64,000 nt of DNA from Escherichia coli (GTDB taxonomy: Bacteria; Pseudomonadota; Gammaproteobacteria; Enterobacterales; Enterobacteriaceae): assembly GCF_003334385.1 (NCBI RefSeq), contig NZ_QOWN01000013.1, one strand, 5' to 3'. Shown piece by piece: positions 3,001 through 7,531 of the stretch. A program made the translations under genes and the position numbers. The stretch's first letter is position 1; every line of letters starts with the position of its first letter. The notes below the pieces were generated by a model. The model ran no database searches, had not been told where the DNA came from, and saw nothing but the letters and a program-made list of their open reading frames with translations.

Positions 3001-3489
3001 CCAGGAAGAACGAACAAATCCACCGCGTCCACGCGCCTGCTTAAAGCTTTTCGCTTTATCGGCGTCTTCAATGATAGAAGCCCATGCCTCAACCGGATCG
3101 CTATGCAGCGCCTTCGCTTCACGCCACATTTTCATCAGGCGTTTGCGCATCATCGGGTATTTCAGGCGGTTGGCACTGTAAAGATACCAGGAGTAGCTGG
3201 CACCGCGCGGGCAGCCGCGAGGTTCATGGTTTGGCAGATCCGGACGGGTACGCGGATAGTCAGTCTGCTGGGTTTCCCAGGTGACCAGACCGTTTTTGAC
3301 GTAGATTTTCCAGCTGCAGGAGCCGGTGCAGTTTACCCCGTGGGTAGAGCGGACGATTTTGTCATGCTGCCAACGCTGGCGATATCCATCCTCCCAGTCA
3401 CGGTTGGTATTGAGAAGCTGGCCATGCCCATCGGCAAAGGTTTCACCCTTCTGTTTGAAGTAGCGAAACCGGTCCAGGAATTTACTCAT
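1..3489 (-). CDS. narG: Respiratory nitrate reductase 1 alpha subunit NarG, 5' portion (about residues 1-1163; C-terminus lies beyond window start)
   Basis: Reverse complement of 3481-3489 reads ATG AGT AAA (MSK) with GGAG RBS upstream; reverse complement of window start reads VPAGMTMMY, matching the NarG C-terminal region. Plus-strand ORFs 193-1506 and 1645-2847 are antisense artefacts. Confidence 0.93.
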   Translation of the reverse strand, partial: MSKFLDRFRYFKQKGETFADGHGQLLNTNRDWEDGYRQRWQHDKIVRSTHGVNCTGSCSWKIYVKNGLVTWETQQTDYPRTRPDLPNHEPRGCPRGASYSWYLYSANRLKYPMMRKRLMKMWREAKALHSDPVEAWASIIEDADKAKSFKQARGRGGFVRSSWQEVNELIAASNVYTIKNYGPDRVAGFSPIPAMSMVSYASGARYLSLIGGTCLSFYDWYCDLPPASPQTWGEQTDVPESADWYNSSYIIAWGANVPQTRTPDAHFFTEVRYKGTKTVAVTPDYAEIAKLCDLWLAPKQGTDAAMALAMGHVMLREFHLDNPSQYFTDYVRRYTDMPMLVMLEERDGYYAAGRMLRAADLVDALGQENNPEWKTVAFNTNGEMVAPNGSIGFRWGEKGKWNLEQRDGKTGEETELQLSLLGSQDEIAEVGFPYFGGDGTEHFNKVELENVLLHKLPVKRLQLADGSTALVTTVYDLTLANYGLERGLNDVNCATSYDDVKAYTPAWAEQITGVSRSQIIRIAREFADNADKTHGRSMIIVGAGLNHWYHLDMNYRGLINMLIFCGCVGQSGGGWAHYVGQEKLRPQTGWQPLAFALDWQRPARHMNSTSYFYNHSSQWRYETVTAEELLSPMADKSRYTGHLIDFNVRAERMGWLPSAPQLGTNPLTIAGEAEKAGMNPVDYTVKSLKEGSIRFAAEQPENGKNHPRNLFIWRSNLLGSSGKGHEFMLKYLLGTEHGIQGKDLGQQGGVKPEEVDWQDNGLEGKLDLVVTLDFRLSSTCLYSDIILPTATWYEKDDMNTSDMHPFIHPLSAAVDPAWEAKSDWEIYKAIAKKFSEVCVGHLGKETDIVTLPIQHDSAAELAQPLDVKDWKKGECDLIPGKTAPHIMVVERDYPATYERFTSIGPLMEKIGNGGKGIAWNTQSEMDLLRKLNYTKAEGPAKGQPMLNTAIDAAEMILTLAPETNGQVAVKAWAALSEFTGRDHTHLALNKEDEKIRFRDIQAQPRKIISSPTWSGLEDEHVSYNAGYTNVHELIPWRTLSGRQQLYQDHQWMRDFGESLLVYRPPIDTRSVKEVIGQKSNGNQEKALNFLTPHQKWGIHSTYSDNLLMLTLGRGGPVVWLSEADAKDLGIADNDWIEVFNSNGALTARAVVSQRVPAGMTMMY

Positions 3490-3580
3490 CGGTTTTCTCC
3501 TGTGGGAGCCTGTCGGCCCTCTGATAAATCGACATTGCTAATGTTTAAGGGCAAGGTAACGCTCTGAAACAGCGTGGGAA

Positions 3581-3594
3581 TTGATAACGATCAA
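3581..3594. promoter_or_regulatory. FNR box TTGAT-N4-ATCAA in narG promoter
   Basis: Perfect palindrome ttgataacgatcaa about 98 bp upstream of narG ATG; narG is known to be FNR-activated from a site near -41.5. Confidence 0.7.
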
Positions 3595-3629
3595 GAGTGA
3601 TGGGGATGAAAAATAAAGTAAATTCCTAA

Positions 3630-3760
3630 GATACCCCTTTAGGATAATTAACAGCCACCACATAACAGACTGTAAATTAAGACGTTTTATACCTGTAGTT
3701 ATTTAAACTATTAAGATTTTTATGCAGATGGGTATTAAGGAGTATTCCCCATGGGTAACA
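3630..3760. promoter_or_regulatory. Candidate NarL heptamer cluster upstream of narG
   Basis: TACCCCT at 3633-3639 on plus strand, with TACTCCT and TACCCAT on minus strand near 3739-3756; all fit NarL heptamer consensus TACYYMT. Positions approximate. Confidence 0.45.
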
Positions 3761-4004
3761 TATTAATGGCTCTTAATGAAATCCGGCGAAATAAACCATA
3801 TAACATTAGTATGTTGTAACTAAATGACGCATAAAAAAAGCGCGACATCATGCCGCGCAAAGGATAATCAAATATTTTACTCTATATAATTCGGTTTACA
3901 GGAAGGCGGCAAGTGAATGAATCCCAGGAGCTTACTAAAGTAAGTGACTGGGGTGAATGAACGCAGCCGCAGCACATGTAACCCGAAGTATGACGAGTAA
4001 CGGT

Positions 4005-5396
4005 TTATTTTTTAGAATGCCGACCATATACCGCCCAGGTAATCACTACGCAGGCGATATAGAAAATCAAAAATACCTTCATTGCGCCGACTGGCGAACC
4101 CGTTAATGCCAGCGAGCTACCAAACGCTTTCGGGATAAAGAAGCCACCAATCGCGCCAATCGCAGAGATGAAACCCAGCGCCGCCGCCGTGTCGGTTGCC
4201 GCTTCACGCATCGCACGTTCGTCAGAACCCCCTTCTGCTTTCACGCGATCCATTGTCAGTTTACGGAAGATCACTGAAATCATCTGGAAAGTGGAACCAC
4301 TACCCAGCCCAGCTGTCAGGAACAGCGCCAGGAAGACCGCGAAGAACGCCATGAAGCTTCCGCCCTGCCCGTCAGTCGGTAAGGTCAGGAACAGCAGGCC
4401 GCTGAAAATCGCCATCAGAATAAAGTTCACCAGCGTGACACGAGTTCCGCCCAGACGGTCAGATAATGCACCACCTGCAGAACGCGCCAGCGCACCAATA
4501 AACGGCCCGAAGAAAGCGTATTGCAGAATCTGAACATCCGGGAACTGCGTTTTTGACAGCATTGCAAAGCCCGCGGAGAAGCCGATGAAGGAGCCGAAGG
4601 TTGCCAGATACAGCAGGCTCATAATCCACAGATGACCCCGTTTGAGTACCGGCAACTGCTCCTTGATGGAGGCTTTCGAGGTAGCAAGATCGTTCATGCC
4701 AAACCACGCCGCAATGGTGAAGATGGCAAGGAACGGCACCCATATCCAGGACGCATTCGCCAGATACAGCTCAGTCCCATCCGGCTGTTTGACGCCCTGG
4801 CTACCAAATACTGCGAAAATCGACAGTGATACCACCAGCGGAGCAACCAACTGCATGACGCTGACGCCCATGTTTCCCAGACCACCATTCAGACCCAGCG
4901 CGCCACCCTGCTTCTGTTTCGGAAAGAAGAAGCTGATGTTTGCCATACTGGATGCGAAGTTCGCGCCAGCAAAGCCGCATAGCAGAGAGATGATGATGAA
5001 GACGCTATAAGGCGTGGAGGTATCCTGCACGGCAAAACCCAGCCAGACGCAAGGAATAATCAGAATACCGGTGCTGAACGCCGTCCAGCGACGACCACCG
5101 AAGATAGGAACCATAAAGGAGTATGGAACACGTAATAACGCGCCAGAAACCGAAGGCAGCGCAGTCAACATAAATAGCTGATCGGTCGTAAAATTAAAGC
5201 CGACTTTCGGTAGGTTCACCGCAACAGCGCTGAACAACATCCATACGCAAAACGCCAGCAGCAGACAGGGAACGGAAATCCACAGGTTGCGGCTGGCAAT
5301 ACGTTGACCGCGTTGTTGCCAGAACGCAGGATCTTCCGGTCGCCAATCTGTAATGACAGCTCCAGTAGCCCTTTCGGGGGCGGATGAGTGACTCAT
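4005..5396 (-). CDS. narK: Nitrate/nitrite antiporter NarK (MFS), 463 aa
   Basis: ORF-track protein matches NarK; start set at ATG 5396 (MSHSSAPE), two codons inside the GTG-started track ORF. Confidence 0.93.
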   Translation of the reverse strand: MSHSSAPERATGAVITDWRPEDPAFWQQRGQRIASRNLWISVPCLLLAFCVWMLFSAVAVNLPKVGFNFTTDQLFMLTALPSVSGALLRVPYSFMVPIFGGRRWTAFSTGILIIPCVWLGFAVQDTSTPYSVFIIISLLCGFAGANFASSMANISFFFPKQKQGGALGLNGGLGNMGVSVMQLVAPLVVSLSIFAVFGSQGVKQPDGTELYLANASWIWVPFLAIFTIAAWFGMNDLATSKASIKEQLPVLKRGHLWIMSLLYLATFGSFIGFSAGFAMLSKTQFPDVQILQYAFFGPFIGALARSAGGALSDRLGGTRVTLVNFILMAIFSGLLFLTLPTDGQGGSFMAFFAVFLALFLTAGLGSGSTFQMISVIFRKLTMDRVKAEGGSDERAMREAATDTAAALGFISAIGAIGGFFIPKAFGSSLALTGSPVGAMKVFLIFYIACVVITWAVYGRHSKK

Positions 5397-5503
5397 AGAC
5401 ACCTCTGATACTCGTTTCGATGTCTGCCACCTTAGTGTCTGTAGCTAAAGGCAATTTGATGTAAATCAAACGATAAGATAACTTTATCTATCATTGATAT
5501 TTA

Positions 5504-5517
5504 TCATTACCCATAGT
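5504..5517. promoter_or_regulatory. FNR-like site TTGAT-N4-ATCAT upstream of narK
   Basis: ttgatatttatcat, one mismatch to FNR consensus, about 114 bp upstream of narK start in the narK/narX divergent region. Confidence 0.5.
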
Positions 5518-5734
5518 GAGTACAGTGACTTCATAAAAATTATGAGATTTTTCACGGTGCTGTAAAATCCCTACCCTTACCGATGTAAAGCGACTAACCA
5601 CACGGCAAATAAGGAGTAACTCTTTCCGGGTATGGGTATACTTCAGCCAATAGCCGAGAATACTGCCATTCCAGAATGTATCGTCACATTCATTAAGGTT
5701 ATTGCTCATTTAAAGCCTGAAGGAAGAGGTTTAC

Positions 5735-7531
5735 ATGCTTAAACGTTGTCTCTCTCCGCTCACCCTGGTTAATCAGGTTGCGCTTATTGTGTTGCTTTCT
5801 ACTGCTATTGGACTGGCAGGGATGGCGGTTTCTGGCTGGCTGGTGCAAGGCGTTCAGGGCAGCGCCCATGCGATCAACAAAGCGGGATCGCTGCGCATGC
5901 AAAGTTACCGTCTGTTGGCGGCAGTGCCATTAAGCGAGAAAGACAAGCCCTTAATTAAAGAGATGGAACAAACGGCATTTAGCGCCGAGTTGACTCGAGC
6001 AGCAGAACGAGACGGACAACTGGCGCAATTACAGGGTTTACAAGATTACTGGCGTAATGAACTGATCCCTGCGCTGATGCGTGCACAAAACCGAGAAACG
6101 GTGTCAGCGGATGTCAGCCAGTTTGTTGCCGGGCTTGATCAACTGGTATCTGGTTTTGACCGCACCACGGAAATGCGCATCGAGACAGTGGTACTGGTCC
6201 ATCGGGTAATGGCGGTATTTATGGCACTTTTACTGGTGTTCACTATTATCTGGTTGCGGGCGCGACTGCTACAACCGTGGCGGCAACTGCTGGCAATGGC
6301 GAGTGCCGTCAGTCATCGCGATTTTACCCAACGCGCAAACATCAGCGGGCGCAACGAAATGGCGATGCTTGGAACTGCGTTGAACAATATGTCTGCAGAA
6401 CTGGCCGAAAGTTATGCCGTACTTGAGCAGCGGGTTCAGGAGAAAACCGCCGGGCTGGAGCATAAAAATCAGATCCTCTCTTTTTTATGGCAGGCTAACC
6501 GCCGTTTGCATTCCCGCGCCCCGCTGTGTGAACGCCTGTCACCTGTACTCAACGGCTTACAGAATTTAACCCTGCTACGTGATATCGAATTGCGGGTGTA
6601 TGACACTGATGATGAAGAGAATCATCAGGAGTTTACCTGCCAGCCAGATATGACTTGTGATGATAAAGGCTGCCAGCTCTGCCCGCGCGGCGTATTACCC
6701 GTTGGTGATCGCGGCACGACCCTGAAGTGGCGGCTGGCTGACTCTCATACGCAGTACGGTATTTTGCTGGCGACCCTGCCGCAGGGGCGTCATCTTAGCC
6801 ATGATCAACAACAACTGGTGGATACCCTGGTTGAACAACTCACCGCCACGCTGGCGCTGGATCGCCATCAGGAACGTCAGCAACAGTTGATCGTGATGGA
6901 AGAGCGTGCCACCATTGCGCGCGAACTGCATGATTCTATTGCCCAATCTCTCTCTTGCATGAAGATGCAGGTGAGTTGTTTACAGATGCAGGGCGATGCG
7001 CTGCCAGAAAGCAGCCGCGAACTGTTAAGTCAGATCCGTAACGAACTGAATGCATCCTGGGCGCAGTTGCGTGAATTGCTCACCACATTCCGCTTGCAGC
7101 TCACCGAGCCTGGATTACGTCCGGCGCTGGAGGCGAGTTGCGAAGAGTACAGCGCCAAATTTGGCTTCCCGGTGAAGCTGGATTATCAATTGCCGCCTCG
7201 CCTGGTGCCTTCGCATCAGGCAATCCACTTGTTGCAAATTGCCCGTGAGGCATTAAGTAACGCCCTCAAACATTCGCAAGCGAGTGAAGTCGTGGTGACG
7301 GTGGCGCAAAACGATAATCAGGTCAAACTGACCGTCCAGGATAACGGCTGCGGCGTGCCTGAAAATGCCATCCGCAGCAATCACTACGGCATGATAATAA
7401 TGCGCGATCGTGCGCAAAGTTTACGAGGCGATTGCCGCGTCCGCCGTCGTGAATCAGGTGGCACCGAAGTGGTGGTCACCTTTATTCCCGAAAAAACTTT
7501 CACAGACGTCCAAGGAGATACCCATGAGTAA
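5735..7531 (+). CDS. narX: Nitrate/nitrite sensor histidine kinase NarX, 598 aa
   Basis: ATG at 5735 preceded by aggaagagg RBS; translation contains the H-box ELHDSIAQ and a HATPase C-terminal domain. Confidence 0.95.

Follow-up and report, generated by a model that had tools for sequence, protein, structure and literature searches.

The interval from narG across narK to narX (positions 3490 to 5734) was analyzed in a stretch of Escherichia coli DNA of 64,000 nucleotides, referred to here as the window. We conclude, at a probability of about 0.96, that two classical E. coli K-12 promoters, both dependent on FNR and NarL, lie in this interval: one drives narGHJI and the other narK, and narXL runs divergently from narK. 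Over their full length, positions 3400-5800 show 100% identity to narG-narK-narX of E. coli K-12 MG1655, as they do to many further E. coli genomes, and at least 80% of this stretch is found in 5416 of 5426 complete genomes. A first-pass annotation of this DNA, made from the letters alone, had suggested a match to known narG and narK regulation, and this is indeed borne out by the K-12 identity, by the published FNR sites and by the regions footprinted with phosphorylated NarL (NarL-P). The K-12 identity, site positions, enrichment and conservation across 36 species were computed here, and protein occupancy and activation are taken from the literature.

Gene layout and orthologous loci

The gene map used throughout is the K-12 annotation carried over to window coordinates:

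3487..3489, minus strand: narG start codon ATG (K-12 annotation; translation MSKFLDRFRYF...)
4005..5396, minus strand: narK coding sequence, nitrate/nitrite antiporter (annotation; ATG at 5396)
5735..5737, plus strand: narX start codon (annotation; narL, then ychO, follow)

The spacer between narK and narG is 515 bp long. The spacer from which narK and narX/narL diverge occupies 5397-5734, as the first-pass annotation had described it, between the start codons of narK (5396, minus strand) and narX (5735, plus strand).

For conservation analysis, one genome per species was scanned with NarK. This yielded 80 loci, 36 of which have the narX-narK-narG arrangement and clear orthologues; these 36 span Escherichia, Citrobacter, Enterobacter, Kluyvera, Raoultella, Lelliottia, Kosakonia, Cedecea, Pluralibacter and others. 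Many NarK relatives at 70-77% identity (loci L042-L071) are a paralogue beside a second nitrate reductase operon, of the narU-narZ type, and have no narX upstream.

The narG promoter

The transcription start of narG can be anchored on a published fragment. The narG223 fragment amplified by Hothersall et al. is described as extending from -223 to +70 (PMC9314961), and the genomic 5' ends of its primers, narGup223 and narGDown, map to window positions 3769 and 3477, respectively. Both ends agree, and narG +1 is therefore position 3546 (A on the narG strand). It follows that the FNR site is centered at -41.5, that TACCTT lies at -12 to -7 and that the ATG begins at +58:

3490..3546, minus strand: narG 5' untranslated leader, 57 nt, +1 at 3546 (anchored on the published fragment; strongly conserved in the 36 orthologues)
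3553..3558, minus strand: narG -10 hexamer TACCTT (-12 to -7), a candidate by position only (columns conserved across the 36 species)
3581..3594, unstranded: narG FNR site, perfect TTGAT-N4-ATCAA at -41.5, the class II position (exact match; site of Myers et al. 2013)

The perfect TTGAT-N4-ATCAA that had been pointed out upstream of narG is exact, with TTGATAACGATCAA occupying precisely 3581-3594, and it is the published FNR site. In the Myers et al. 2013 data, the narG FNR peak from chromatin immunoprecipitation sequencing (ChIP-seq) is assigned the site TTGATCGTTATCAA at genome coordinate 1278982, with a position weight matrix (PWM) score of 14.78 and a position of -41.5 (PMC3688515). Being a perfect inverted repeat centered at -41.5 from the anchored +1, the narG site is of class II type. 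The sites thus fall where the mapped narG start leads one to expect them, and nothing in their positions contradicts the initial description. A "~500-bp narG leader" that was part of that description is incorrect, however, since the transcribed leader is 57 nt; the narK-narG spacer consists mostly of upstream activating region and narK 3' untranslated region (3'UTR), and the narG upstream activating region begins only past a Tus-binding Ter site (described below). In sequence, FNR site, +1 and heptamers alike, the region coincides with the E. coli K-12 narGHJI promoter without any difference; it is that promoter itself.

The narK promoter

A second perfect palindrome, TTGATGTAAATCAA, is present upstream of narK at 5456-5469. 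This site had been overlooked in the first-pass annotation, in which a one-mismatch version stood as the narK FNR site. The one-mismatch site does exist, but at 5494-5507, 10 bp away from the 5504-5517 originally given. Positions 5504-5517 read TCATTACCCATAGT, which has mismatches to the FNR consensus at 6/10 positions (counted by eye) and takes in the final 4 nt of the FNR-like site together with a NarL heptamer. It is the perfect palindrome at 5456-5469, rather than the one-mismatch site, that is the operative primary FNR site of narK:

5456..5469, unstranded: primary narK FNR site, perfect TTGAT-N4-ATCAA, -41.5 (pattern match; site of Myers et al. 2013; 36/36 orthologues)
5429..5434, minus strand: probable narK -10 hexamer TAAGGT (position derived from the -41.5 value; columns conserved)
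5494..5507, unstranded: secondary FNR-like site TTGATATTTATCAT, one mismatch, at about -79.5 of narK (one-mismatch scan)

Published occupancy data single out the same palindrome. The narX/narK FNR ChIP-seq site in the Myers et al. 2013 list is TTGATTTACATCAA at coordinate 1277107, whose PWM score of 17.06 is the highest in the part of the list compared here (PMC3688515). TTGATCGTTATCAA and TTGATTTACATCAA are the reverse complements of the window's two perfect palindromes, which are 1875 bp apart both by the Myers et al. coordinates and in the window (5456 minus 3581). Table 1 of the same source places the top-scoring FNR site at -41.5 for both operons and counts one FNR site for narK, and its supplementary file 12 gives FNR expression ratios of 0.02-0.07 for narK and narGHJI, a strong change (PMC3688515). 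In addition, narX/narK is a known FNR target in the microarray-based chromatin immunoprecipitation (ChIP-chip) study of Grainger et al. (PMC1802558). Taking the published -41.5 value alone as the reference, narK +1 would lie at about 5421 (plus or minus 1). The sequence is identical to the E. coli K-12 narK promoter, at which NarL and IHF act as co-activators, and with 5456-5469 being its published ChIP-seq and PWM site, no difference from that promoter is seen.

The statistics of the FNR matches were assessed over the whole window. Perfect TTGAT-N4-ATCAA palindromes occur twice, against 0.13 expected, and none of 100 dinucleotide shuffles contained two or more. Taken together, FNR-like sites with one mismatch show no enrichment in the window (6 observed, 3.06 expected). 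The 14-mer TTGATATTTATCAT of the narK -79.5 site recurs at 52283-52296 on the plus strand, approximately 130 bp upstream of the hlyE (clyA) ATG at 52424. Regulation of hlyE by FNR and its masking by H-NS are published, and this copy is presumably the hlyE promoter site shared by FNR and CRP. The offset from narG to hlyE differs by 535 bp between the window (about 3400 to 52400) and the K-12 record NZ_CP032667.1, and there is therefore an indel somewhere within the intervening 48 kb.

NarL heptamers

Induction by nitrate is expected to depend on NarL-P binding at heptamers of the consensus TACYYMT. Upstream of narG, such heptamers had been noted by eye, and four are exact:

3632..3638, plus strand: TACCCCT, centered at -89 of narG (exact TACYYMT; high-affinity NarL-P region)
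3728..3734, minus strand: TACCCAT, centered at -185 of narG (exact TACYYMT; distal cluster 3728..3757)
3738..3744, minus strand: TACTCCT, centered at -195 of narG (exact TACYYMT; distal cluster 3728..3757)
3751..3757, minus strand: TACCCAT, centered at -208 of narG (exact TACYYMT; distal cluster 3728..3757)

DNase I footprints of NarL-P on narG were reported by Katsir et al., with a high-affinity region at -89 and a lower-affinity region at -195, both of which are needed for induction along with FNR and IHF (PMC4549865). The exact narG heptamers coincide with these two footprinted regions, and comparison with the footprinted promoter thus supports the heptamer assignments that had been made at narG.

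At narK, the heptamers fall into a proximal pair and a distal block:

5508..5522, unstranded: inverted pair TACCCAT(+) a GTGAGTA with a 1-bp gap, at about -90/-98 of narK (heptamer scan)
5612..5645, unstranded: distal narK heptamer block, 90-123 bp upstream of the narX ATG (strongly conserved)

The pair consists of an exact heptamer at 5508-5514 on the plus strand (about -90) and one with a single mismatch at 5516-5522 on the minus strand (about -98). The distal block contains two exact heptamers on the minus strand, TACTCCT at 5612-5618 (-194) and TACCCAT at 5632-5638 (-214), as well as TACTTCA at 5639-5645 on the plus strand, which has one mismatch and lies at -221 of narK. Overall, seven exact TACYYMT heptamers occur in 622 bp, where local first-order Markov simulations predict 1.14 (P ~0.0003), a density of 11.3 per kb compared to 0.81 per kb window-wide.

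The arrangement of these heptamers differs from that of the NarL 7-2-7 sites of nirB, yeaR and ogt, with which narG and narK have the heptamer consensus in common. narG is stated to be without 7-2-7 sites (PMC4549865), and no inverted heptamer pair at 2-bp spacing was found in the narG region, where TTATCCT, as the nearest possible partner for the -89 heptamer, matches at only 5/7 positions. The narG heptamers are instead single or direct repeats 10-13 bp apart, whereas the narK -90/-98 pair is inverted, yet spaced by 1 bp rather than 2 bp.

Conservation of the sites

In 36/36 loci, the primary FNR sites of narG and narK are both perfect and lie at an almost constant distance from the ATG. The narK -79.5 site stays at one mismatch in just three loci (E. 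coli, E. albertii and another Escherichia locus), and in the remaining 33 it deviates at 3-8 positions. Conservation of the heptamers is uneven. Allowing up to one mismatch, the narG -195 heptamer is present in 36/36 orthologues, -185 in 27/36, -89 in 22/36 and -208 in 1/36, and at narK the figures are 35/36 for -98 and 6/36 for -90. Within the distal block of narK, TACCCAT at -214 is exact in 35/36 loci and the TACTCCT-type heptamer at -194 in 32/36. On this pattern, what is conserved at the core of each promoter is a single perfect FNR site at -41.5, accompanied by two NarL elements, one proximal and one distal.

IHF and the textbook mechanism

The narG promoter requires IHF (PMC3688515, PMC4549865), and the Myers et al. 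data carry the flag "IHF ChIP-chip" at narX/narK (PMC3688515). A scan with the IHF consensus WATCAANNNNTTR, allowing up to one mismatch, gave two matches only, one at -326 of narG and one overlapping the narK FNR site, with none at -100 to -180 of either narG or narK. Neither match falls where IHF would be expected, and the IHF element is adopted here from published work. A block reading GTGAAAAA(T/C)C and followed by a T-run lies at 5546-5555 on the minus strand (-134 to -125 of narK) and is kept in nearly all 36 orthologous spacers. Given the flag at narX/narK, this block may be part of the narK IHF region. A generic sigma-70 scan returned 3 promoter-like matches where 3.0 were expected; a minus-strand match of 10/12 positions at 5566-5539 is unconserved outside Escherichia and was rejected as a probable chance occurrence.

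The mechanism is the one given in textbooks. In the absence of oxygen, dimeric [4Fe-4S]-FNR binds the narG palindrome at -41.5, overlapping the -35 region, and recruits RNA polymerase in the class II manner. In the presence of nitrate, NarX phosphorylates NarL, and the resulting NarL-P occupies the non-7-2-7 heptamers of the -89 region and of the distal -185/-195/-208 cluster. Bending of the intervening DNA by IHF allows the distal NarL-P complex to act on the FNR-polymerase complex. The narK promoter is laid out analogously, with FNR at -41.5, a weaker FNR-like site at -79.5 that is confined to Escherichia, and heptamers for NarL at about -90/-98 as well as about -194/-214.

Alternative explanations

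Several observations weigh against reading the interval as two such promoters. The narG -208 and narK -90 heptamers, although exact, are unconserved beyond Escherichia, so that some exact consensus matches are less likely to matter than others. The narK -79.5 site is likewise unconserved and is not among the FNR sites counted by Myers et al., and the narK start takes its position solely from the published -41.5 value. No WATCAANNNNTTR match with up to one mismatch is found at -110 to -140 of narG. These last positions (3656..3686) are approximately where we take the IHF-binding region of narG to lie. The lack of enrichment of one-mismatch FNR-like sites and the two unconserved exact heptamers could also be accommodated if the palindromes and heptamers were chance matches in AT-rich intergenic DNA with no regulatory role. 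Chance, however, does not readily yield two perfect palindromes where a small fraction of one is expected, nor their perfect retention at near-constant distance from the ATG in every orthologous locus, nor their location under ChIP-seq peaks, and the heptamers are both enriched and situated within footprinted regions. Conservation and published occupancy together refute this explanation, to which we give next to no credence.

The choice of the narK FNR site and the role of the distal block were also considered. The spacing of the one-mismatch site at 5494-5507 fits a tandem upstream activator position, and the narK promoter papers of 1992 reportedly describe two Fnr boxes at narK, the upstream one acting as a second FNR site. 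That the one-mismatch site is the operative one is nevertheless very improbable: a perfect palindrome with the top PWM score in the part of the Myers et al. list compared here lies 38 bp downstream at the canonical -41.5, Myers et al. count a single narK site (PMC3688515), and the degeneration of the one-mismatch site in most orthologues stands against the invariance of the -41.5 site. Two roles come into question for the heptamer block at 5612-5645. Its short distance from the narX ATG, and the fact that it is the best-conserved part of the spacer, are compatible with a role in narXL control (NarL autoregulation) instead of, or besides, distal activation of narK. Its placement at -194/-214 from narK +1, on the other hand, mirrors the -185/-195/-208 cluster of narG, suggesting the same NarL-IHF-FNR design, and we consider control of narXL by this block a real but minority possibility. 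We therefore retain the interpretation of the interval as the FNR- and NarL-dependent promoters of narGHJI and narK.

Additional elements in the narK-narG spacer

The spacer between narK and narG contains further elements besides the narG upstream activating region. Those in the narK 3'UTR are as follows:

3831..3858, minus strand: narK intrinsic terminator, the 3' end of the small RNA (sRNA) NarS (terminator scan, GCGCGGCATGATGTCGCGC then T7; hairpin by RNA folding)
3859..3872, minus strand: conserved single-stranded stretch TTTGATTATCCTTT, likely the NarS seed (conservation 0.7-0.9 in 36 species)
3875..3997, unstranded: ERIC-like palindromic repeat in the narK 3'UTR, within the NarS precursor (Rfam, hairpin, comparison)

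NarS is an sRNA that depends on Hfq and stems from the narK 3'UTR, with a conserved seed upstream of its terminator hairpin (PMC7038943). A conserved single-stranded stretch and a Rho-independent terminator are indeed found directly downstream of narK. The terminator stem exhibits compensatory variation across species and genera, and TGATTATCC, just upstream of it, is conserved in most of the 36 species. From its conservation and position, the TTTGATTATCCTTT stretch is likely the NarS seed. Rfam returned no curated family at threshold, the NarS region included.

The ERIC-like element folds into a stable hairpin (z = -3.9), and its only Rfam match is sub-threshold (V_AS5, 30.9 bits, E = 6e-4). 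It also matches what we take to be the ERIC2 primer sequence at 19/19 positions. The element is polymorphic within the species: of 5417 complete E. coli genomes, 2457 (~45%) carry it at full length. It is absent from the loci of other Escherichia species, E. albertii included, whose spacers are 392-393 bp long. In four Citrobacter species, the corresponding place is taken by a related element that appears to be reversed in orientation. The element corresponds to the "170-nt insertion" described near the narK stop codon of E. coli K-12 (PMC7038943).

The remaining element is a binding site for Tus:

3804..3826, plus strand: Ter site CATTAGTATGTTGTAACTAAATG, a 23-mer (exact core; comparison with TerB)

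The 12-nt core GTATGTTGTAAC, beginning with G6, is exact at 3809-3820, which identifies the sequence as a Ter site. A strictly conserved 12-bp Ter core has been defined, and ChIP-seq has recorded Tus occupancy of TerA-E and TerG (PMC8707476). The TerB oligonucleotide matches the site at 3804-3826 in 19/22 positions, and relative to TerB (core AGTATGTTGTAACTAAA) 17 contiguous nt at 3808-3824 are identical (PMC4499146). The site lies 5 bp beyond the T-run of the narK/NarS terminator and lies approximately 47 bp upstream of the narG -208 heptamer. It is presumably TerD, going by its map position near 1.279 Mb. Judging from the position of G6, it would block replication forks moving from narG toward narK, that is, counter-clockwise, an orientation that fits the published polarity of TerA, TerD and TerE. 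An exact copy of the 15-mer TAGTTACAACATACT sits at this position in 29 related loci, which contain no other copy; the narU-narZ-type loci (L042-L071) lack it. TAGTTACAACATACT was compared with ArcA, OmpR, Lrp, LexA, TrpR and GntR-type motifs before Ter was identified, and its interpretation as the site of an unknown transcription factor was rejected when a literal sequence search of the literature identified the Ter core.

As far as is known, the Tus-Ter fork trap is unrelated to nar regulation and merely co-occupies the intergenic region. Its placement, retained in at least 29 enterobacterial loci, might be functional if the terminator shielded Tus-Ter from strong anaerobic narK transcription arriving at what would be the permissive face, or if bound Tus played a boundary or architectural part for narG's upstream activating region. 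We regard either role as unlikely; published constructs starting at -223 are still nitrate-responsive, which argues against a need for Ter in narG induction.

Significance

The regulation of narG, narK and narX encoded here is already known, reference-strain biology, and the two promoters rank with the most thoroughly studied in bacteria. The gain lies in a corrected site map, in which the primary narK FNR site is identified, the one-mismatch site is shifted by 10 bp and the narG leader is reduced to 57 nt, and in the recognition that the same interval also holds NarS, a polymorphic ERIC insertion and a Ter site. The 36-species footprint sorts the conserved elements (the FNR sites at -41.5 of both promoters, narG -195/-185/-89 and narK -98/-194/-214) from the matches that are specific to Escherichia, namely the narK -79.5 FNR-like site, narG -208 and narK -90.

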